From the NCBI GenBank assembly GCA_965208105.1, contig OZ242318.1, positions 3,968,001-4,032,000 on the forward strand: a stretch of DNA of 64,000 nt. The letters run 5' to 3'. Position 1 is the first letter of the stretch, and the number at the start of each line of letters is the position of its first letter. The DNA is from Candidatus Latescibacterota bacterium. GTDB lineage: Bacteria; Latescibacterota; UBA2968; UBA8231. This document shows positions 10,690 through 64,000 of this stretch, one piece after another. Position numbers and translations under genes: made by a program. The notes under the pieces are model-generated. The model had not been told where the DNA came from. It did no database searches and saw only the letters and a list, made by a program, of their open reading frames with translations.

Positions 10690-10700
10690 TTATCTGACGC

Positions 10701-30725: not shown

Positions 30726-31536
30726 CTCGCTGCTCTGCATCGGGCTGGACCCGGACCCGCGACAACTGCCGCAAAGGGCGCAAACCGAGGAGAATCCCGT
30801 CCTCTACTTCAATCGCCGGATTATAGAGGCCACCTCCGACCTGGTTTGCGCATACAAACCCAATTTCGCCTTCTATGGTGCTCTCGGGTCAGAGGGCTGG
30901 CCCACCCTGCGAGCGACCCTGTCCCATGTGCCTCCTTCCATTCCCATCGTCATCGACGCCAAGGTGGGAGATATCGGCTATACTGCGGAAAAGTACGCCA
31001 CCATGTTCTTCCATGAGCTCGGCGCCGATGCCGTGACGGCAAACCCCTACATGGGCGGGGACGCGGTAGCTCCCCTGCTGCAGTATGCGGACAAAGGCGT
31101 CTTTCTCCTCTGCCTGACTTCCAACGATGGAGCCCGGGACTTCGAAACGCTGTCGCTGGGGGACCGTCCACTCTACGAACATGTCGCCCTCAAGGCGGGA
31201 TCGTGGAATCGGAACGGCAACTGCGGATTGGTGGTTGGCGCCACCCGGTCAGATGCCATGGAGAAAATTCGCTCCCTGGCTCCAGATCTGCCTTTTCTCG
31301 TTCCTGGAGTTGGAGCTCAGGGCGGCGACCTGACGACTGCCGTGTCCTGCGGCCAGGATGGAGCCGGAGGTGGAGTGCTGATCAACGCTTCACGTTCCGT
31401 TCTCTACGCCGGGAATGGTGACGACTTCGCCATGCTTGCGCGCCAGGCGGCCTGCAAGTTGCGCGACGAGATAAACCGCTGTCGCACCCGAGTTGGGGAG
31501 GGGCTTGCGACCACGAGGATTGGTGTGTCAGGATGA
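30682..31536 (+). CDS. pyrF: Orotidine-5'-phosphate decarboxylase
   Basis: LCIGLDP, YKPNFAFY, DAKVGDIG.T (DxKxxD), LVVGAT, PGVGAQGG, NASRS. Confidence 0.96.
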   Translation: MTFQEKLAQAVARNNSLLCIGLDPDPRQLPQRAQTEENPVLYFNRRIIEATSDLVCAYKPNFAFYGALGSEGWPTLRATLSHVPPSIPIVIDAKVGDIGYTAEKYATMFFHELGADAVTANPYMGGDAVAPLLQYADKGVFLLCLTSNDGARDFETLSLGDRPLYEHVALKAGSWNRNGNCGLVVGATRSDAMEKIRSLAPDLPFLVPGVGAQGGDLTTAVSCGQDGAGGGVLINASRSVLYAGNGDDFAMLARQAACKLRDEINRCRTRVGEGLATTRIGVSG

Positions 31537-31560
31537 GCCCATCCCCGGTCGAGGAGCCGG

Positions 31561-31609
31561 AGGCCGGTTTCCATCTGTTCCGGGTGCGTCGTGGAGCGGC
31601 CTCGGTCTA
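31561..31609 (-). other. Distal part of an orphan IS1111-type non-coding (bridge RNA-like) scaffold
   Basis: Reverse complement TAGACCGAGGCCGCTCCACGACGCACCCGGAACAG aligns to the IS non-coding region from 32989 (TAGATTGAGGCCGCTCCGCGACGCACCCAGGACAG). Confidence 0.8.
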
Positions 31610-31723
31610 GACCTTATGTATTGACGGAGATATGAAAGACCTCCTCCGACTCGGTTGTCGGGGGTTATCTTTGGGAAAACGGAGTTCACCCAAAGACCTA
31701 TCCCCAGCGAGAAGGAGGAGGCC

Positions 31724-32863
31724 ATGCGTAAATCTACGAAATTCGTCGCCTTGGACATACATAAAGATTCGATCACCGTCGCCCTGGCCGGTGAAGGCCG
31801 AAAAGGGCCAGACCTGTATGGAACGATACCGTCTACGGGCGCCGCGTTGTCCAAGCTGGCGGGCCAACTGGCCCGTGGTGGGACCTCGTTGCGGTTTTGC
31901 TACGAGGCCGGACCCTGCGGCTACGGCGTCTACCGTCAGCTCACAGCCCTGGGGCACGCCTGCACGGTGGTGGCGCCCTCGCTGATCCCGCGTCGGCCGG
32001 GCGACCGCATCAAGACCGACCGCCGCGATGCTGTGTCTCTGGTGCGGCTTTTCCAACACGGCGAGTTGACCCCCGTGTGGGTGCCCGACGAAGCGCAGGA
32101 GGCGATGCGCGATCTGGAGCGCTGCCGGGAAGACTTCAAGCACGCCGAGCGCCGCGTGCGCCAGCGGCTGAACAGCTTCTTGCAGCGCCACGGCCGGATC
32201 TACTCCGGGCGCAGTCGCTGGACCCAAGCCCACTTTCGCTGGCTGCAGACCCAGCGCTTCGATCATCCGGCCCAGCAGATCGTCTTTCAGGAATACGTGG
32301 ACGCGGTACAGGAAGCCCAAGGTCGGATCCAGGGGTTGGACCAGGCCCTGCAGCAGGCGCTGGAGGGATGGTCTTTGGAAGGGGAGACGCGGGCTATGAG
32401 GGCGCTGCGCGGGGTAGACACGCTCACCGCGGTTACGACCCTGGCCGAGTTGGGGGACCTCACCCGCTTTGACTCGCCGCGCCAACTGATGGCCTTCGTC
32501 GGTCTGGTCCCCAGCGAGCATTCCAGCGGCTCCCGCCAAAAGCGAGGGGCGATCACCAAGGCGGGCAACGCCCACGTGCGGCGCGTGCTGGTGGAAGCCG
32601 CCTGGTGCTATCGCTTTCCCGCCCGCAAGACGGCCGCCTTGCAACGACGCGCCGAACAGACCGCACCCCCCATACAGGCCATCGCCTGGAAGGCACAGAA
32701 ACGCCTGTGTGGGCGCTATCGACGGCTGAGTGGGCGAGGGATGCCGAAAAACAAAGTCTGCACCGCGATCGCGCGGGAGCTTTTGGGTTTCATCTGGGCC
32801 ATCGCCTGGGAGCAGAAACGCCCCGGCCGCCTCGTGGCCAGGAGGCCTCGGATCGCCGCCTGA
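31724..32863 (+). CDS. IS110 family DEDD transposase/recombinase
   Basis: ALDIHK, CYEAG, KTDRRDA (DEDD) and GLVPSEHSSG (catalytic Ser); SD AAGGAGGAGG. Confidence 0.97.
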   Translation: MRKSTKFVALDIHKDSITVALAGEGRKGPDLYGTIPSTGAALSKLAGQLARGGTSLRFCYEAGPCGYGVYRQLTALGHACTVVAPSLIPRRPGDRIKTDRRDAVSLVRLFQHGELTPVWVPDEAQEAMRDLERCREDFKHAERRVRQRLNSFLQRHGRIYSGRSRWTQAHFRWLQTQRFDHPAQQIVFQEYVDAVQEAQGRIQGLDQALQQALEGWSLEGETRAMRALRGVDTLTAVTTLAELGDLTRFDSPRQLMAFVGLVPSEHSSGSRQKRGAITKAGNAHVRRVLVEAAWCYRFPARKTAALQRRAEQTAPPIQAIAWKAQKRLCGRYRRLSGRGMPKNKVCTAIARELLGFIWAIAWEQKRPGRLVARRPRIAA

Positions 32864-32916
32864 TAAGCTCATCGTCTCAGAAGCCGGCATAGGACCTTTG
32901 CTCATGTAAATCGAAA

Positions 32917-33086
32917 CGGGACAGAAGGGACCGGTCAGGAGAATCCTCGAAGACACTATGAGGCGCCTATCAGGCTGACCCTCGACTCTAGATTGAGGCC
33001 GCTCCGCGACGCACCCAGGACAGGCGGTAACCAACCCGCGAATATCAGTCGGATCAACCGTCGCTACAGCGTCCCTTCTGTTCCCG
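32917..33086 (+). ncRNA. Predicted bridge RNA/seekRNA of the IS1111 element
   Basis: Closing helix CGGGACAGAAGGGA/TCCCTTCTGTTCCCG. Loop 1 closed by CCTCGA/TTGAGG holds GACACT and TCTAG; loop 2 closed by GCGACG/CGTCGC holds ATATCAG. Ends are approximate. Confidence 0.75.
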
Positions 33087-33134
33087 AACAAACTCATGCA
33101 AAGATAACACCCGAAATGACCACCCCGGAGGGGG

Positions 33135-33140
33135 TTGACA
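33135..33140 (+). promoter_or_regulatory. Outward-facing -35 box at the IS right end (circle-junction promoter)
   Basis: TTGACA just inside the right IR. In the circle a weak -10 (GACCTT) falls at 17-nt spacing. Confidence 0.55.
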
Positions 33141-33157
33141 ACCGTCAATACATATCA

Positions 33158-33321
33158 GTGTCCCGTCGCAGAAATATGTCGCCATTTTTCCGCCGATCCA
33201 TCCCGGCTCACGGCGTTGCCTTCACTCGCCGTACACCACTGGTACGACTCGCTCAGGCGCCTTGTGAGCCGGGCGCCTCGGCGGCCCAATTGGGTCAACC
33301 TATCTCTGCGACGGGACACTA
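33158..33321 (-). mobile_element. MITE copy 4 (full, inverted); outer CTAG split by the IS1111
   Basis: GTGTCCCGTCGCAGAAAT...ATCTCTGCGACGGGACAC-TA. Removing the IS restores CTAGTGTCCCG. Confidence 0.92.
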
Positions 33322-33432
33322 ACTTCGAAGGTCAGCCTGAAGGGCGCCTCATAGTGCAGTCGAGGATTCTCCTGACCGGTCCCTTCTGTTCTCCTTCGAT
33401 CTACATGTTCAAGGTCCTATGCCTGGTTCTGA
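33320..33432 (-). other. Proximal part of the orphan bridge RNA-like scaffold
   Basis: Reverse complement shares ACAGAAGGGACCGGTCAGGAGAATCCTCGA, ATGAGGCGCC and TCAGGCTGACC with 32877-32990. Confidence 0.85.
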
Positions 33433-33567
33433 TCGGCTTGATGGGCCGCGCCGAGGCCCGGGAAATCGTGGGTCGCAACGCAACCGCCGGCAAGTTGGTG
33501 GTCGAGGTTCCATAAACGACCGGGTCTCACTGGTGATCTTTACACACTCCAACAAAGCAGGCAAACC

Positions 33568-34407
33568 ATGACTGAAGAAGAGTTGTACCTGTTCGATACG
33601 CTCGGTTTTCTCCGGGTGGAAAACGTGCTCGACGAGGAGACCGTTGCCCAAGCCCAAAGGGGGGCGCAGAAGATCGTTGACGACTGCGGGCACCTCCTGG
33701 AACAACCGCCGGGATCCGGCTACGGGGACAAGTACAAAAACGCGATTGTCCACGACAAGGTGTTGGAGCGGATCGCCTATTCGCCGGTCATGCTGGATTA
33801 CGCCTGCCACCTGACCAACAATATGCCGCGCCTCCTGGACGGCACCATGATGGTCCAGAATTCCGACCACGGGTTCCACAACTTCCATCTGCGCAAGGAT
33901 ATCCTCAGTGAAATGCACGAGGACGCCCCGCGCTTTTATACCGACGTGGTTCACCGCCGGATTTATTGTGACTGGGCCACCTTCTTCGTCTACCTGACCG
34001 ACGTGCGCCCGGGGGACGGGGGCCTGCTGGTGGTGCCCGGAGCCCACAGGGCCAGCTTCATCTATCCCCCCGAGCTGTTCTATGCGAAAGACGCCTATCC
34101 GGTGGACCCGGAAGAGCGTCAAAAACTGGGATTCATCAACGTCACCGCCAACGCGGGGGACATGATCATCATGCCGCTGCGCCTGAACCACGCGGCCCTG
34201 CCCTGGCTTCCGGTGGACCGGGACCGGATCTTGATGTTCTACACCTACCGGCCCCAGTTCTACTGCTCCGAGCCTACCGACCAATGGTTGGCCGCCGCCG
34301 CCGCCGCCGGCATCCAGCTGGATGCCGAGACCATCGAGCTGGCCTCGATGAAGGAGAAGGGAGAGCTGAAGGATATCGTCAAGAGCCACCTCGGCATCGA
34401 CGCATGA
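33568..34407 (+). CDS. PhyH family dioxygenase-like protein
   Basis: YLFDTLGFLRVENVL, YLTDV.PGDGGL.VVPGAH, AGDMIIM...HA, R.LMFY.Y. Confidence 0.85.
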   Translation: MTEEELYLFDTLGFLRVENVLDEETVAQAQRGAQKIVDDCGHLLEQPPGSGYGDKYKNAIVHDKVLERIAYSPVMLDYACHLTNNMPRLLDGTMMVQNSDHGFHNFHLRKDILSEMHEDAPRFYTDVVHRRIYCDWATFFVYLTDVRPGDGGLLVVPGAHRASFIYPPELFYAKDAYPVDPEERQKLGFINVTANAGDMIIMPLRLNHAALPWLPVDRDRILMFYTYRPQFYCSEPTDQWLAAAAAAGIQLDAETIELASMKEKGELKDIVKSHLGIDA

Positions 34408-34702: not shown

Positions 34703-36679
34703 ATGAAGCTGGAACCGAACCGGGATGAGACCCCTCGCATCACCCTGCGGGGGTTGGTTCTGGGCCTCCTGACCATTGCCGCCACCTTCTACTTTTACAT
34801 CGGCGAGATTCAGGGAACGGGGATGCTGGGCCATGCAGTGAGCTCCCAGCTTCCGGTGGTGGTGTACGTTCCCTTCGTCCTGTGGCTCTTCCTGAACGTA
34901 GTGGCGAAACATCTGTGTCCCCGGCTGGCGCTGCGCCGGGGGGAATTGCTGACCATCTTCGGGATGCTCTGGGTGGTGGGCACGATTCCGGGCTACGGCT
35001 GGATGGGGTACTGGGTGCTCACGCTGGCGGCGCCGGCGTTCTACGATTCCGCCGAAAATCAGTGGACTGAGATCCTTTTCGACTTCCTGCCCTGGCACGT
35101 CTTTCCCGACCCCTCGGCGCGGGTCATCGACACCTTCTGGCTCGGCCTGCCGGAAGGTGCGCCGGTGCCCTGGGACGGTTGGATCGGGGCGACGGGGCAG
35201 TGGTTGAGTGTTTCGGTGGCCATGGTTGGGTTCGGCCTCTGCATGGTTGTTCTGCTGCAAAGGCAATGGGAAGCCGGGGAGAAGTTGACCTTTCCCCTGG
35301 CGCAGCTCCCGTTGGACCTGACCGCCGGATTCGACGGCCCCCGCCGGATGCCGGCGATCTTCCACTCGCGTCTGTTCTGGATCGGATTCGCCGCTGTTTT
35401 CCTCCCCGTCCTGTACAACATCGCCACTTACTTCATGGCCGGCCTGCCGCGGATCGGCATCTACTGGGATCTCTACAACATCCGCCTGGGAGAGGGATTC
35501 CCGACTCTGCACTTTCGCATCATGCCGCTGGTGGTAGCGGTAACCTACCTCTGTCCCCTCGATATTCTGGCCAGCATGTTCCTCTTTCACCTCCTGGCGA
35601 TTCTCAAGGGGGCGGCCATGACGCGCATCGGCTTTACCGTCGGCACCTCCGGGGAGCCGCTGCATTGGAACGAGATCCTGCACCTGGAAAGTTATGGCGC
35701 CCTCATCTTCATTGGGCTCTGGACCATCTGGCTGGCCCGAGGGCATTTGCGCGCCGTCTGGCGGCAAGTGCGATCGGGCGCCGGCAGAGGTGCAGAGGTC
35801 TCCCGCTACCGCTGGGCGCTGTCCGGTTTGGCGATCAGCGGCGGCTATGTGCTGATCTGGATGGTGGCGATCGGCATTAGCCTGAAGGCGGCCCTGCTGA
35901 TTTTTTCCATAGCGGTCCTCACCTACCTGGTGGTAGTCAAACTGATCGCCGCAACCGGCTGCGCCTATCTGCTCACCGACCCCGGGCATATCAAGGGAAT
36001 CACCTTCGTAGACCAGCTGTTGGGCACCGCCCTCCTGTCCCCTCGCAGCTATGTCGGCTTCCGCCTGTTCAGCAGCACCACCTTTTTCGGCAACCTGCGC
36101 ATTCCTGCCTGGCCTTCCCTCCCCCACCTGCTGCGCATATTCTCCATGAAGCGACAACCGGGATGGATCACGGCACTGGTATTGGCCGCTTTCCCGGTGG
36201 GCTTTCTGGTGGCCGCATGGGCGACCCTGGAGATCGCCTACACCGAGCAGGCCCTGGTCTTCTTTTCCGACAGCGTCGCACCGGGATACAGCGAGACCGC
36301 GCGCAACCTGAACAACCCGAAAACATCCGATCTCGGACGGTGGCTCGTATTCCTCGCCGGCGTCGCGGAGTCGGCGGTGCTGGCCCTGTTGCGGGCGCGC
36401 TTCCACTGGTTTCCGTTGCACCCGCTCGGGGTCGCATTTCAGTACACCATCGTCGGCATCGTATTCTGGTTCAGCCTGTTTCTGGTTTGGGCGGTGAAGG
36501 TGTCGCTGTTGCGCTACGGAGGCAAAGCGGCCTACCTCGCCGGCAAGCCGTTCTTTTACGGCCTGGCGGTGGGGTACGTGAGCGGGATCATCCTCTCGGT
36601 CGGGGTCGACTTCATCTGGTTCCCCGCCGCCGGCCACAACGTCCATTCCTGGTTCGTCGAGATCAAGCCGTTGATCTAG
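34703..36679 (+). CDS. DUF6785/DUF6784-type polytopic membrane protein (putative transporter)
   Basis: ITLRGLVLG, L.RGELL, RQW...EKLTFPLAQLP, RF.WFPLHPLG, K..LLRYGG...Y...KPFF.GL. Confidence 0.8.
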   Translation: MKLEPNRDETPRITLRGLVLGLLTIAATFYFYIGEIQGTGMLGHAVSSQLPVVVYVPFVLWLFLNVVAKHLCPRLALRRGELLTIFGMLWVVGTIPGYGWMGYWVLTLAAPAFYDSAENQWTEILFDFLPWHVFPDPSARVIDTFWLGLPEGAPVPWDGWIGATGQWLSVSVAMVGFGLCMVVLLQRQWEAGEKLTFPLAQLPLDLTAGFDGPRRMPAIFHSRLFWIGFAAVFLPVLYNIATYFMAGLPRIGIYWDLYNIRLGEGFPTLHFRIMPLVVAVTYLCPLDILASMFLFHLLAILKGAAMTRIGFTVGTSGEPLHWNEILHLESYGALIFIGLWTIWLARGHLRAVWRQVRSGAGRGAEVSRYRWALSGLAISGGYVLIWMVAIGISLKAALLIFSIAVLTYLVVVKLIAATGCAYLLTDPGHIKGITFVDQLLGTALLSPRSYVGFRLFSSTTFFGNLRIPAWPSLPHLLRIFSMKRQPGWITALVLAAFPVGFLVAAWATLEIAYTEQALVFFSDSVAPGYSETARNLNNPKTSDLGRWLVFLAGVAESAVLALLRARFHWFPLHPLGVAFQYTIVGIVFWFSLFLVWAVKVSLLRYGGKAAYLAGKPFFYGLAVGYVSGIILSVGVDFIWFPAAGHNVHSWFVEIKPLI

Positions 36680-40188: not shown

Positions 40189-41550
40189 TCAGTACGGAGC
40201 CGGTCCGTCACCGGACGGTATCATTGCCCTGAAATGGTCGCCAGTTTCTTGGCACCATTCCCGAAGATAGAATCGCATGCTCGCCAGCAGAGGCGCAAAG
40301 CGCGAGCTGGCCGCGAGATTCACCATCTCCCCCGGGTCTGCCCTCAAGTCGAATAGCTGCTCGCGATACCGGCCCCAGTCGTAGATGACATACTTGTACT
40401 GTCCATTGTAGACCGCCCGGCCGATCAGATTCTTGCCTCCGTGCTTACCCATCTGCATGCCCGGTTGATGGCGAGGAGCCCGGTCGACCTCAATCACCAG
40501 GTGTTCACGCCAGGAGGCGGGGACCATCGCGCTCGATCTTTCCTCTACCACGGGACGAAGTGAGCGGCCGCGCAGGCCTGCTGGCGGATCGATCGCGGCG
40601 TAGTCGCAGAAGGTCGGCATGAGGTCGAGTCCGGTATGGGCCGGCGCCGGTGAAACCATCGGCGCGAAACTTCCAGCCGCCTTCGGGGGTTTGACGATCA
40701 ACGGCACCTTCACCGCCTCTTCGTAGAGCACGAGCTTCTGCTTCAACTTGTGCGCCCCCTGGCCGTCGCCGTGGTCGCTGACGAAAACGACGAGCGTATC
40801 GTCGTAGAGCCCGCTGCCGCGAAGCCCCTCCACGACGATCCCGATATGGCTGTCGACCAATTCGATCAGCCGGAAGTACGCGCTGCGGTATCGCCTCCAC
40901 CAGTTGGGATCGTCGGTTTGATGATCTGTGGAGAAAGCGGATGGATGGGTCGCGGTAAAAGAACGGATGGCCTCCGGTTCGAACGGACCGATTTCGTAGT
41001 TGGCCGGCAGCACCGGGCAGTCGGGTATTTGGCGCTCCTCGATCCGCCCGAGGTAGGTATCCTGCTCGCGTGCCCACTGGCATATGTTGTGGGGATTGAT
41101 GAAGGAGGCGACGAGGAAGAATGGGGCGCTTCCCCTGCTCTGGCCGCGATCCAGGAGAAACTGGCGGCAGTGGGCGGCCATATCGGCGTCGAGGGCATCC
41201 GAAAGCGGTTCGAACCCGCATATCTCCTGTTCTTCGCTCAGCGCCAGGGAGCGATTGCCGGCGTAGTAGCAGTCGTAGCCGGACGCCGCCAGGATTCGTC
41301 CAAGCGTCGCTTCTGGATTCTCAATCTTGCCATCGGCGAACGATAATTCATGCGGAAGCGTGCCGGTGATGATGCTGTTGCGCGCCGGCGCGCACGACGG
41401 AGTGGCGCAGTACGCGCGCTCGAAGCGCACGCCATCCGCGGCAAGGCCGTCCATCATCGGTGTCGAAAGCTCGACATTCCCTGCGCAGCTCATGGTATTC
41501 GCCGACTGTTGGTCCGTGAAGATGAGCAGGATGTTCGGTCGTGAACTCAT
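40189..41550 (-). CDS. Sulfatase-like hydrolase (paralog A)
   Basis: RPNILLIFTDQ, CAPAR (CxPxR), NPH, SDHG, YEE..KVP, LFDL..DPGE..NL. Confidence 0.9.
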   Translation of the reverse strand: MSSRPNILLIFTDQQSANTMSCAGNVELSTPMMDGLAADGVRFERAYCATPSCAPARNSIITGTLPHELSFADGKIENPEATLGRILAASGYDCYYAGNRSLALSEEQEICGFEPLSDALDADMAAHCRQFLLDRGQSRGSAPFFLVASFINPHNICQWAREQDTYLGRIEERQIPDCPVLPANYEIGPFEPEAIRSFTATHPSAFSTDHQTDDPNWWRRYRSAYFRLIELVDSHIGIVVEGLRGSGLYDDTLVVFVSDHGDGQGAHKLKQKLVLYEEAVKVPLIVKPPKAAGSFAPMVSPAPAHTGLDLMPTFCDYAAIDPPAGLRGRSLRPVVEERSSAMVPASWREHLVIEVDRAPRHQPGMQMGKHGGKNLIGRAVYNGQYKYVIYDWGRYREQLFDLRADPGEMVNLAASSRFAPLLASMRFYLREWCQETGDHFRAMIPSGDGPAPY

Positions 41551-43991: not shown

Positions 43992-44051
43992 CCGTCGATC
44001 CATCCCTGCTCACGGCCCAATTGCGTCAAACTGTCTCTGCGACGGGACACT
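43992..44051 (-). mobile_element. MITE copy 5 (relic with internal deletion)
   Basis: CGATCCATCCCTGCTCACGGC is fused through CGGC directly to CCAATT...TCTCTGCGACGGGACACT. Confidence 0.75.
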
Positions 44052-44242
44052 GGCGCTTTTTGTATTCAAAATGGCGTTGTATGTTCGTTCTGAATGCGGT
44101 AAAATATCAAATAGGCCCATACTCGACACGCGTTCATCGCTCGCCTGTAAATAGACCGAAAGAGGTCGTGATCCGAGAAGCCTGGCCAGATCCCACCAAC
44201 CTCCCGTTCCCCAGCTCGACGATCTTGGGAAAGGAGTAACCA

Positions 44243-47050: not shown

Positions 47051-48358
47051 ATGCCCAACCGACCCAACATTCTTTTGATCTTCACCGACGAACAATCCGC
47101 CGACGCCATGAGCTGCGCTGGCAACGTCGAGATATCCACGCCAGCCATGGACCGCCTCGCGGCGGACGGCGTCCGCTTCGAGCGCGCCTATTGCGCCGCG
47201 CCGTCCTGCGCGCCGGCGCGCAACAGCCTCCACACCGGCCGGATGCCCCATCAGGTCGAATTCGGCGAGAATGGCAAGATCGCCAAACCGGAAGAGACCC
47301 TCGGCCGCATACTGGCCGGCGCTGGCTATGACTGCAATTACGCCGGCAACCGCGCTTTTTCGTTGAGCGAAGACCCCGGCATCTGCGGGTATCAGCCGCT
47401 CTCCCCCAAGGGGGACGCCATCACCGCCCAGCGCTCCGCCGAGTTCCTGCAAGAGCGCGGGCGCGGTCAGAACGACAACCCGTTCTTTCTGGTCTCATCC
47501 TTCATCAACCCGCACAACATCTATCAGTGGGCGCGGGACCAGGACACCTACCTCGGCGCTGTCGAAGATCGCCCCATCCACGAATGCCCGATCCTGCCGG
47601 CCAACCACCATATGGCCCCGTTCACGCCCCAATGCATCAAGGCGTATCTGGGTGGACATTCGCCGGCCTACCAGGCACCCCAACCGATTGACGATCCGAA
47701 CTGGTGGAGGCGCTACCGCAACGCCTACTTCCGCATGATCGAGATGGTGGATGCGCAGATCGGCATCGTGCTCGACTCCTTGCGTGATTCCGGACTGTAC
47801 GACGACACCCTCGTGCTCTTCATCAGCGACCACGGTGACTGCGCCGGCGCGCATCAGTGGCTGTGGAAGAATGTGCTCTACGAGGAAGCATTGAAGGTGC
47901 CGTTCATCCTGAAACCTCCTTCAGGCAGCGCGGCCGGCCTTTCCAGCGCCTTTGTTTCCACCGGGCTCGACATCCTGCCGACCTTCTGTGATTACGCCGA
48001 GGCCGATCTACCAGGTGGTTTGCAAGGCCGCTCCCTCCGGCCGTTGGTGGAGGGATCCAAAGATGCGGAGGAATCCTGGCGCAAGCAGCTGGTGGTGGTC
48101 ACGGACCGCCACGATTACGGCATGGTCGGACGCGCCGCGTTCGAGGGGAATACGAAATACGTGATCTACGAATGGGGCCGTTATCGCGAACAGCTGTTCG
48201 ACCTGGAAGCCGATCCCGGTGAGATGGTGAATGTCGCATCCAGTGCCCGGTTCACGCCCGACCTGGTCAGAATGCGATCCTTCCTGCGCGACTGGTGCGC
48301 CGAGACCGGAGATTATTTCAAGTCCGTTCCAAAAGGCGAGAACCCCGCGCCGTACTGA
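47051..48358 (+). CDS. Sulfatase-like hydrolase (paralog B)
   Basis: RPNILLIFTDEQ, CAPAR, NPH, SDHG; colinear with 40189-41550. Confidence 0.9.
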   Translation: MPNRPNILLIFTDEQSADAMSCAGNVEISTPAMDRLAADGVRFERAYCAAPSCAPARNSLHTGRMPHQVEFGENGKIAKPEETLGRILAGAGYDCNYAGNRAFSLSEDPGICGYQPLSPKGDAITAQRSAEFLQERGRGQNDNPFFLVSSFINPHNIYQWARDQDTYLGAVEDRPIHECPILPANHHMAPFTPQCIKAYLGGHSPAYQAPQPIDDPNWWRRYRNAYFRMIEMVDAQIGIVLDSLRDSGLYDDTLVLFISDHGDCAGAHQWLWKNVLYEEALKVPFILKPPSGSAAGLSSAFVSTGLDILPTFCDYAEADLPGGLQGRSLRPLVEGSKDAEESWRKQLVVVTDRHDYGMVGRAAFEGNTKYVIYEWGRYREQLFDLEADPGEMVNVASSARFTPDLVRMRSFLRDWCAETGDYFKSVPKGENPAPY

Positions 48359-62936: not shown

Positions 62937-64000
62937 GAACCCAAATATGTCCTCCAGGTCCAACTCGACGATGCTCCCGTGTCGGGCCAGGTCCTCCAGG
63001 TCGATCTTGCTCCTGTCTCCCACGATGGAAATCAGCCGGGGGCGGTTCCGGATATGGTCGCGGTGGAATCCCAGCATCGCTTCCAGCGAAGATCGCTGAA
63101 GTTCCTCGAAGCGCTTGGCACGCGGGTCGATCGGGACCTCCTGGCGCTCCCAGGTGCGCACCGCGCCCAGGACCTGGCGAAACCCGAGGCGAGAGGTGCG
63201 GTAGTCGTTTAGCAGGGCTTGCCGGGCGGCCTCGAAGCGCTCTTCGGAGACCGGGGGGTGATCGAGGAGGTCGAGAAAAACCTCCACGGCCTCCATGGTC
63301 TTGTCCGCCTGGCAGCCTACGACTCCGACCATGAGGCCGGGCTCCGCCTTGCGCTTGCCGTGAAGGTAGCGCGCTCCGGCAGAGTAGGCCAGGGCGCGCG
63401 CTTCGCGAAGTTCCTGAAATACCACTCCGGCCATGCCGCCCGCAAAGTACTCGTTGTAGAGTTGTATGAACGGGCGCAGACCCTCCTCGTAGGGACCGTC
63501 TCCGGATTCGATCCGCACCAGGGCCTGGGCCATCTCCTTGTCGAAGAAATAGGTTTCGTTTGCCGCGGGCAGGCGGGTATTCAGGACCTGGTAGGGAGGA
63601 GGCGGTTGCAATTCTCCTTCCATCCTGTAACTCTGTTCAAGGTGGTCGAGGAGCTCGTTCAGGGTCAGGGACCCGGTATAGCTCAGGGCGTGCTCGAAGG
63701 TCAGAAGGCCGCCGATCAACCGGTGGAGTTCCTGCCCGCGCAGCTCCTGAAGTTCAGCATTGGAGAGGATGCGGCGGAAGTAGGACTGATCGCCCCAGCG
63801 GTTGAACTGGTAGAGTGCCCGGCTGATGGTGCGATTGTCCTTTCGGGCGTCGGCTCGTTCCTTGAGGATGATGCTGACCAGTTCTTCGAATACAGCCTCC
63901 TCGGCCGCCGGCCGCTGCAGGAATTCCATCAGCAGGGCGAGAGAAGCTCCAAAGTTTTCGTCGAGCCCGGCGATGGTGACGGTCGTTTCGTGGTCGCCGA
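62934..64000 (-). CDS. M16 (insulinase) family peptidase, C-terminal part (5'-partial)
   Basis: YNEYFAGGM.GVVFQELREARALAYSA, QADKT; frame continues past the window edge. Confidence 0.88.
   Translation of the reverse strand, partial: GDHETTVTIAGLDENFGASLALLMEFLQRPAAEEAVFEELVSIILKERADARKDNRTISRALYQFNRWGDQSYFRRILSNAELQELRGQELHRLIGGLLTFEHALSYTGSLTLNELLDHLEQSYRMEGELQPPPPYQVLNTRLPAANETYFFDKEMAQALVRIESGDGPYEEGLRPFIQLYNEYFAGGMAGVVFQELREARALAYSAGARYLHGKRKAEPGLMVGVVGCQADKTMEAVEVFLDLLDHPPVSEERFEAARQALLNDYRTSRLGFRQVLGAVRTWERQEVPIDPRAKRFEELQRSSLEAMLGFHRDHIRNRPRLISIVGDRSKIDLEDLARHGSIVELDLEDIFGF

Follow-up and report, generated by a model that had tools for sequence, protein, structure and literature searches.

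It is established that the recombinases of the IS1111 and IS110 groups of insertion sequences (IS) are guided by RNA (PMC11187229; PMC11208160). Moreover, in Coxiella burnetii 20 of 21 copies of IS1111 were found inside the MITE (miniature inverted-repeat transposable element) QMITE2, where they occupy an internal palindrome (PMC5896051). Targeting of repeats by IS1111/IS110 elements, i.e., of repetitive extragenic palindromes (REPs), attC sites, the inverted repeats (IRs) of Tn21 and QMITE2, is already in print and the mechanism considered here is not new. A non-exhaustive literature search on IS110/IS1111 elements and MITEs found no report of a guide set to the junction of a MITE's target site duplication (TSD) and terminal inverted repeat (TIR). 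Such a case is presented by a stretch of 64,000 nucleotides from Candidatus Latescibacterota bacterium (assembly GCA_965208105.1, contig OZ242318.1, positions 3,968,001 to 4,032,000), in the following called the window, to which all positions refer unless stated otherwise; the genome carrying it is one contig of 4.85 Mb. At 31609..33156 (+) the window harbors an IS of the IS1111 family that is, with high confidence, active or recently active and uses a DEDD recombinase aimed by RNA at MITE termini.

The element is a complete IS1111-type IS of 1548 bp, the left copy of the core dinucleotide AG counted in, and its ends are identical in 12 genomic copies. It begins at 31609 (left junction ggtct-AGACCTT) and ends at 33156 (right junction CATATC-AGTGTCCCG). 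The left copy of the core is found at 31609..31610 (+), and the right copy at 33157-33158 is composed of the A of the MITE's flanking TA and the first G of its TIR. The subterminal inverted repeats ATGTATTGACGG (31616..31627, +; 7 nt from the left end) and CCGTCAATACAT (33142..33153, +; 3 nt from the right end) pair over 12/12 bp, inside the range of 11-13 bp of the IS1111 family, leaving terminal extensions of AGACCTT (7 nt) on the left and ATC (3 nt) on the right; these ends are fixed by the 12 copies and by vacant sites. The left non-coding region of 115 nt, upstream of the transposase gene, contains a terminator-like hairpin followed by a T-rich tail (31643..31664, +), possibly acting as a barrier to read-through transcription. 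The transposase gene (31724..32863, +) encodes a protein of 379 aa with a DEDD/RuvC-like N-terminal domain (PF01548, DEDD_Tnp_IS110, E 5.6e-13) and a PF02371 C-terminal domain (E 1.7e-22), which scores 263 bits against the NCBIfam model NF033542 'IS110 family RNA-guided transposase' (cut-off 140). Its C-terminal domain carries GLVPSEHSSG, fitting the IS1111-family motif GL-P----S(T)G. The nearest transposases of solved structure, ISCro4 (9t56) and IS621 (8wt6), are remote and align in the C-terminal domain alone (E 1.7e-8 and 2.2e-5). Downstream of the gene follows a 3' non-coding region of 293 nt (32864..33156, +) that is predicted to encode the guide RNA. An earlier note, made from this DNA alone, had assigned the element to IS1111, and the two Pfam domains, the NF033542 score, the 12-bp subterminal repeats, the 7/3-nt extensions and the 3' non-coding region bear this out. 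Its coordinates are likewise correct throughout (CCTCGA 32945-50, GACACT 32952-57, TCTAG 32987-91, TTGAGG 32993-98, ATATCAG 33042-48 and 33152-58).

The distribution of the element within the genome reveals its target. Eleven full-length copies and one with an internal deletion of 120 bp were identified; the 379-aa frame is intact in 10/12, a frameshift is present in one, and seven copies are almost identical to each other, therefore the burst is recent. All 12 copies are flanked by xCT-AG...ATATC-AGTG in one orientation. This is the insertion habit of the IS1111 family, i.e., all copies sit at CT-AG-TG in a single orientation and without target duplication, AG being single in vacant sites. 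Ten of the 12 copies reside in MITE termini with AGTGTCCCGT(c/a/g)GCAG to their right, seven of them at the ...AGAAATATG end and three at the ...AGAGATAGG end of the MITE, and the two others lie outside of MITEs at gCT-AG-TGGTCG and cCT-AG-TGTTGT. Since every copy has its own left flank and both types of MITE ends were hit, the insertions are independent. The comparison of flanks between genomic copies, which the earlier note had proposed as a check, accordingly yielded common junctions in all 12 copies and MITE ends in ten. The copy at gCT-AG-TGGTCG (G000:C1:3964970-3966518, -) is located 1.5 kb ahead of the window and adjoins a DDE_3 fragment (3964391-3964651).

The MITE itself is small, multicopy and without coding capacity, and it is bounded by the TIR GTGTCCCGTCGCAG. 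The genome contains 81 complete copies of 160-180 bp (~168 bp); ends that deviate from GTGTCCCGTCGCAG by no more than two mismatches number 228. TA is present at both sides of 42/81 complete copies, and 31/81 show the context CTA before and TAG after the element. IS630-type elements insert into CTAG, duplicating TA. The target element, with the TIR GTGTCCCG..., shows this habit and appears IS630-like, i.e., a MITE of the IS630/Tc1-mariner kind. The copy hit in the window, GTGTCCCGTCGCAG...CTGCGACGGGACAC (33159..33319, -), is flanked by TA at 31608+33157 and at 33320-33321. Excising 31609-33156 leaves GGTCT-AG-TGTCCCG, which is the normal MITE end C-TA-GTGTCCCGTCGCAG; the same end is found vacant in the window at 10698, 12384 and 62770 and, reverse-complemented, at 62938, in agreement with the restoration of a MITE end that had been claimed. 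Both vacant 9-mers TCTAGTGTC that had been named are present as well, one at 36675 (+) outside any MITE and one at 62938 (-), which is a MITE end. MITE ends account for 74 of the 87 CTAGTGTC sites that are vacant in the whole genome. The target of the IS is made up of C from the integration-site preference, TA from the duplication and GTGTC from the MITE repeat. It arises when the MITE inserts into CTAG and duplicates TA, and therefore the IS is almost confined to MITE termini. The specificity TCT-AG-TGTC on a TA-flanked MITE, as previously put forward, is thus upheld by 74/87 vacant and 10/12 occupied sites, but its novelty was overstated, since RNA guidance as well as insertion into repeats and transposon ends has been published before.

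An autonomous partner of the MITE with the same TIR was not found in the genome, neither among its 13 DDE_3 matches nor in the one long TIR-to-TIR interval. Two candidates were rejected: a multicopy IS630-like element of 1162 bp with CTAGTGCGCTGTTAA ends, which have just TAGTG in common with the MITE, and the sole TIR-to-TIR interval of 2.8 kb, which contains host genes (FtsW/RodA, TPR). The 1162-bp element (DDE_3; ends CTAGTGCGCTGTTAA...TTAACAGAGCACTAG) is found at G000:C1:301596-302757 and in at least eight more places, one copy at G000:C1:~392,757 adjoining a MITE with which it has the TA in common. The TAGTG in its ends also occurs in the IS target, and none of these ends is occupied by the IS. 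Furthermore, a solitary MITE end, CGGCCCAATTGCGTCAAACTGTCTCTGCGACGGGACACTGG, lies at 44013-44055 of the window and is followed by TG instead of TA.

The association of IS and MITE might in principle not reflect a choice of target, if both move or recombine as a unit or if the IS spreads by homologous recombination between MITEs. The same repeat following 10/12 copies and the abundance of the MITE (81 complete copies, 228 ends) would fit such a scenario. However, on the left of the IS just the T of TA remains, followed by unique DNA, so that the MITE transposase would find no left TIR; moreover, the IS occupies both types of MITE ends (7 + 3), two copies are found outside of MITEs (CT-AG-TGG, CT-AG-TGTT), and relatives with other guides are inserted at other sequences matching these guides. 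Co-movement is therefore regarded as highly improbable, and a recombinase that selects the MITE terminus as its target is preferred.

How this target might be read is suggested by the predicted guide RNA. Its core, composed of an outer stem and two arms, is encoded at 32917..33086 (+), as supported by a minimum free energy (MFE) of -64 kcal/mol (z -2.5; 2 of 200 shuffles fold equally well) and by a consensus of 40 sequences described below. Arm 1 is composed, in this order, of the stems GGAG/CUCC and CCUCGA/UUGAGG, an internal loop with AGACACUA on its 5' side and ACUCUAGA on its 3' side, and an inner hairpin; arm 2 is composed of the stem GCGACG/CGUCGC, a large internal loop with AUAUCAG on its 3' side and the hairpin GCGG/CCGC. 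Within the 5' strand of the arm-1 loop (32951..32958, +), GACACUA forms the complement of the T-AG-TGTC top strand, i.e., to position -1, the core and positions +1 to +4. In the 3' strand (32985..32992, +), UCUAG equals positions -3 to -1 of the left flank plus the core and is complementary to the bottom strand. The top-strand match thus lies 5' of the bottom-strand match and both overlap on TAG, which is the order of IS1111 seekRNAs. In the MFE fold a single internal loop has the two target-matching segments as its opposite strands and AUAUCA is unpaired in arm 2, so that the guide segments lie in loops, as the earlier note had expected of a fold of this interval. As in the target loop of IS621-type RNAs, the arm-1 loop contains two guide strands around a core; RNAs of that type are encoded 5' of the recombinase, whereas the RNA of this IS, like those of the IS1111 group, is located 3' of the transposase gene. 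All ten occupied MITE sites have a pyrimidine at position -3 (T 4, C 6), compared to 39 of 74 vacant sites (T12/C27/A12/G23; hypergeometric P = 0.003). This preference would fit a guide U pairing with A or G and suggests tolerance of U·G at -3.

The assignment of the guide strands was assessed in relatives of the element. A scan of one genome per species yielded 235 relatives. Eighty of these loci were retained, with transposase identities of 56-85% and, by record label, from many phyla. The right end was located in 71 among the 80 kept loci and the window copy, giving 61 distinct non-coding regions. Four of them without sequence anchors (L072, L075, L084, L093) were left out, seven with long arm insertions (L064, L065, L069, L099, L101, L104, L106) were set aside and four near-duplicates (L073, L103, L109, L114) were omitted, resulting in a final alignment of 39 relatives and the window IS. 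The relatives have their ends in common (left AGACAT-N-ATG(T/G)ATTGACCTG, right CAGGTCAAT(A/C)CATATC), as well as the core AG and the two-arm RNA, and they differ in their targets. All relatives with ends found have the core AG except for L116/L117 and L069, in which it is AA. In L116/L117 the guides changed to match, the arm-1 strand of L116 reading the AA core too; L069, in which the guides are unchanged, is probably a mutated copy. RNAalifold predicted 26 base pairs for the 40 sequences, 11 of them with compensatory changes on both sides, including the stems closing the arm-1 loop (UA↔CG in 6 sequences, CG↔UA in 7) as well as the base of arm 2 (GC↔AU in 16).

In these relatives, the 5' strand of arm 1 is the reverse complement of the element's own -1 position, AG and right flank, and the element's left flank plus AG is repeated in the 3' strand; examples of guide/target pairs are AGGCUCCUA/TAGGAGCCT, AGACUCCUA/TAGGAGTCT, AGCCUCCUA/TAGGAGGCT and GUUUGCCCUU/AAGGGCAAAC. 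Shuffling the targets among lineages 10,000 times, with 36 distinct guide/target pairs for the right flank and 30 for the left, gave 63.1±7.3 matches at +1 to +6 compared to 157/216 observed, and 51.2±4.3 at -5 to -1 compared to 94/150 observed; in neither case did any of the 10,000 shuffles score as high. As some relatives are one base out of register in this column-based count, the observed score is lowered. The identity of guide and target by position is 0.86, 0.78, 0.83, 0.83, 0.64 and 0.42 for +1 to +6, and 1.0, 0.9, 0.7, 0.33 and 0.2 for -1 to -5, therefore the part of the site that is read spans about -3 to -1, the core AG and +1 to +5, which here is TCT-AG-TGTC. The assignment of GACACU and UCUAG as guides, proposed earlier for this single copy, is backed by relatives that have other targets, in which the strands are homologous and covary with these targets. 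These data also bear on the possibility that the recombinase protein alone recognizes the site and that the loop matches are due to chance, which draws on the shortness of the matching segments (7 nt + 5 nt in a non-coding region of 293 nt). The permutation tests on 36 + 30 pairs, the homologous places that the segments occupy within a conserved structure and the published experiments on members of the family (PMC11187229; PMC11208160) speak against it, and recognition by protein alone is barely credible.

The second arm of the RNA appears to be related to the donor. Its loop strand AUAUCAG (33042..33048, +) is identical to the right end of the IS plus core and covaries with it: AUACCAG is found with the right end ATACC-AG (L056/L062/L097/L110), AUAACAG with ATAAC-AG (L044) and AUAUCAA with ATATC-AA (L116). 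For the left end, a candidate second donor guide, AGGAC (33023..33027, +), is the homologue of NGUCA in relatives and pairs at 4/5 positions with G-ACCU. In most relatives GUC alone is conserved in the 5' strand of arm 2, being the complement of G-AC of the left end, and the next base is unconstrained; L102, with CUCU in this strand and the left end AGAG, is one compensatory case. In the window IS and its two closest relatives GGAC faces the left end AGACCT, 4/5 positions being paired on either side of an A·A mismatch; in the MFE fold, the GAC of GGAC is instead paired with a GUC on the opposite strand of arm 2. The donor match AUAUCAG of the earlier note is thereby supported by covariation in three lineages with one exception, given below, and its statement that there is no convincing second donor guide stands, the match of GGAC to the left end being short and interrupted.

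When the ends are joined in silico, TTGACA in the right end (33135..33140, +) becomes a candidate -35 box, followed after a spacer of 19 nt by the -10-like CCTTAT (31612-31617), i.e., TTGACA-N19-CCTTAT; in most relatives the arrangement is TTGACA-N17-CATNAT. Such a promoter would form only when the IS ends abut, and positions 4-9 of the left end may be constrained as its -10 box. Two further pairings were considered and rejected. A 'handshake' that would extend arm 2 to the right flank (AUAUCAG-U in the window IS, CAUAUCAG-CAG in L064-70) is attributed to chance, the three bases after AUAUCAG not tracking the flank in relatives; for the conserved CGYGGGTTA in the left end of relatives (about +35) and AACCCRCG in the RNA, own pairs (6.9/10) and cross pairs (6.6/10) show no covariation.

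Several observations weigh against an RNA-aimed element as outlined here. The IS copies c8 and c11 have the 3'-loop variant CCAUAG and flanks of CCCTAG and TCCTAG, respectively, resulting in a mismatch at -2 that calls for either mobilization in trans by the RNA of other copies or mutation after insertion. Half-matching sites occur among the relatives, with mismatches in the 5' loop of L083 and L094 and in the 3' loop of L085 and L038. The relatives are akin to each other, so that the permutation counts overstate their independence; the variety of their targets (GAGCCT, GAGTCT, GAGGCT, TCAAGT, GGCAAA, TGTGGC, CTTCAT and others), each matched by the element's own guide, is nevertheless not explained by descent. 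No Rfam 15 family was found at E <= 1 in a scan of 31000-34000, and neither a circle junction nor an empty-site joint was found in the assembled contigs of the public runs X1, X5, X7 and X15. Finally, arm 2 of L083 (AUACCAG) mismatches the element's own right end (ATATC-AG), and between the left end and the 5' strand of arm 2 there is little covariation, with the A·A mismatch in the window IS.

The latter two points would equally be expected if arm 1 picked the target as a single-loop seekRNA and arm 2 were a structural or protein-binding module, the ends being recognized by the protein via the subterminal repeats and the flanking target halves. The likeness of AUAUCAG to the right end could then stem, e.g., from a shared protein-binding motif or from common descent. 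Moreover, for ISEc11 an 82-nt seekRNA with the target matches was enough for movement, and reprogramming needed a change of the donor flanks (PMC11187229). Against this stand three independent cases of a joint change in arm 2 and right end (ATACC, ATAAC, core AA), the position of the AUAUCAG segment in an internal loop between stems that change in a compensatory manner, and the donor-matching loops reported for IS1111 members too (PMC11208160). A single-loop RNA is thus considered unlikely compared to one in which arm 2 reads the right end.

The variant guide of c8 (G000:C1:2701795-2703344) and c11 (2923418-2924965), CCAUAGAC, would suit ATAG-TGTC sites; these are scarce in the genome, where six MITE ends are preceded by ATA. 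Beyond this genome, contigs assembled from public runs of other studies hold the IS at >=90% likeness, i.e., at least 90%. In one of them (X7 record 25) the IS is again followed by a MITE end and the left flank is different. Parts of the IS, among them 32867-32968, are also found in contigs of a metatranscriptome library (X15), where carry-over of DNA is possible. The contigs of the public runs break at 31607 and 33157, as repeats would, which has no bearing on activity.

From what was observed, i.e., the anatomy of the IS, its 12 sites of insertion, and strands that covary with the flanks in arm 1 and with the right end in arm 2, the following mechanism can be proposed. The guide RNA would be made from the 3' non-coding region and bound by the transposase. 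The loop of arm 1, closed by CCUCGA/UUGAGG and the inner hairpin, would present two target strands, GACACUA pairing with the top strand of T-AG-TGTC and UCUAG with the bottom strand of TCT-AG; both strands would jointly read TCT-AG-TGTC, and strand exchange would take place at the core AG. In the donor, presumably a circle with the junction CATATC-AG-ACCTT, AUAUCAG of arm 2 would read the right end and core. For the left end, any guide strand would be very short (GUC in relatives, GGAC here), and recognition would probably depend for the most part on the protein and the subterminal repeats. Insertion of the MITE into its preferred CTAG with duplication of TA would create the 9-nt target, and the IS would follow the MITE to its termini.

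The locus in the window shows a further layer of insertion. On both sides of the IS and its MITE lies the remnant of the 3' non-coding region of a related IS, without transposase gene or IS ends: its 5' part (33322..33432, -; 5' loop CUGCACUA) is homologous to IS 32877-32985 with about 85% identity and its 3' part (31566..31608, -; 3' loop AGUUAGAC) to IS 32988-33032 with about 83% identity. The MITE splits this remnant in the TA of the 3' loop AGUUAGAC, and the loop strands of the remnant (CUGCACUA / AGUUAGAC) are unlike those of the live IS. The insertion of the MITE into the guide-coding DNA of the remnant created the perfect site GGTCTAG-TGTCCC, which was later taken by the live IS. The locus thereby displays layered parasitism in an uncultured lineage, a MITE in the remnant of an IS and a live IS in the MITE. 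A repeat family matching the guides of the remnant (GTT-AG-TGCAG) was not found in the genome, and TAGTGCAG was rejected as its target repeat, its 82 occurrences lying in unrelated contexts with ~118 expected from base frequencies. Elsewhere in the window, 40542-41541 and 47060-48053 form five inverted-repeat pairs of 80-209 nt with 75-81% complementarity, probably the trace of two paralogous genes that are oppositely oriented and have diverged.

Some relatives are inserted next to small elements of a similar kind. At eight loci from six records of metagenome-assembled genomes (MAGs), labelled Gammaproteobacteria, Desulfobulbaceae and Halomonas, they lie at the terminus of elements of ~160 bp (seven of 159-163 bp; that at L059 65 bp), which are flanked by C-TA...TA-G and have the inverted repeats GGAGnCTGTCGGA (L040: GCAGTCTGTCGGA); the guides of these relatives are for GAG(C/T/G)CT or CAGTCT. 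At six loci of one MAG labelled Bryobacterales, relatives lie at GCGCAGGGCTCG elements of ~94 bp that are flanked by TA, with TA after 5/6. One relative abuts a DDE_Tnp_1_4 transposase gene and another an rve-domain frame, and ordinary genes lie beside most of the other relatives whose flanks were tested. Targeting the TA/TIR junctions of small transposons may thus be a habit of the clade. It is conceivable, with somewhat less than even chances, that the IS belongs to a widespread clade spanning several phyla of RNA-guided 'hyperparasites' on the termini of TA-duplicating elements, with conserved ends AGACAT...ATATC, the core AG being fixed and the loop strands drifting after the resident MITE or IS family. 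If so, the core AG would correspond to the A of the host element's TA duplication and the first G of its inverted repeat. As it takes the integration of the host element to bring such a site into being, the guide would read a scar of transposition that neither partner carries alone. Two peculiarities were observed in single MAGs: in L058 and L059 (gammaproteobacterial) the right end is doubled, a second CAGGTCAATACATATC lying 77 bp downstream and the outer one adjoining the target; in L099-L114 (labelled Bryobacterales), elements of 1.75-1.85 kb contain tandem GACGGCCGACAGGGA-like repeats in the non-coding region upstream of the RNA, and several copies have a duplicated inner hairpin of arm 1.

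As a summary, the locus provides a clean natural example of how an RNA-guided recombinase finds a landing site that is safe, present in many copies and spreads by itself, namely a MITE's TSD/TIR junction. In the series of more than 30 orthologous elements, donor ends and core are shared, guides differ and the natural targets are known, so that the positions read can be deduced by comparison alone; half-matching insertions are seen in nature within this series, which could guide the choice and the programming of IS1111-type recombinases as tools. The value of the system is in its clear natural covariation series and its layered parasitism; it represents a new specificity and no new mechanism.

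Compared to known systems, the window IS combines features of several of them. The core of IS621 is CT, and that of the window IS is AG. Like the bridge RNA of IS621 and the IS110 group, its predicted RNA has two internal loops, of which at least the target loop has a strand for each side of the core dinucleotide, the core being common to donor and target; unlike in IS621, the RNA is located 3' of the recombinase, the order of the target-loop strands is reversed and there is one convincing donor strand (PMC11208160). With ISEc11, ISKpn4/ISPst6 and ISPa11 it shares the DEDD transposase, the GL-P----SG motif, subterminal repeats of 11-13 bp, 7/3-nt extensions, the non-coding region downstream of the transposase gene, the top-strand match 5' of an overlapping bottom-strand match, the fixed orientation, the lack of a target duplication and naturally reprogrammed close relatives (PMC11187229). 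It differs from these seekRNA elements in its target, a TA/TIR junction of an IS630-like MITE instead of attC, REP or a short linear site, in its transposase of 379 aa compared to 330-350 aa quoted for the IS1111 family, and in a donor-matching strand in the second arm that is supported by covariation (PMC11187229). With IS1111 of Coxiella it shares the near confinement to MITE copies (20/21 there, 10/12 here); however, the target in QMITE2 is an internal GTAG REP-like palindrome, whereas the window IS uses the extreme terminus plus the flanking C-TA, half of the site being non-MITE sequence (PMC5896051). Finally, like the IS1111-family elements at Tn21 IRs it parasitizes the terminal inverted repeat of another transposon. 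The site in Tn21 lies inside the 38-bp IR of a large transposon of the Tn3 family. The target of the window IS is instead the TSD/TIR junction of a non-autonomous element of 168 bp.

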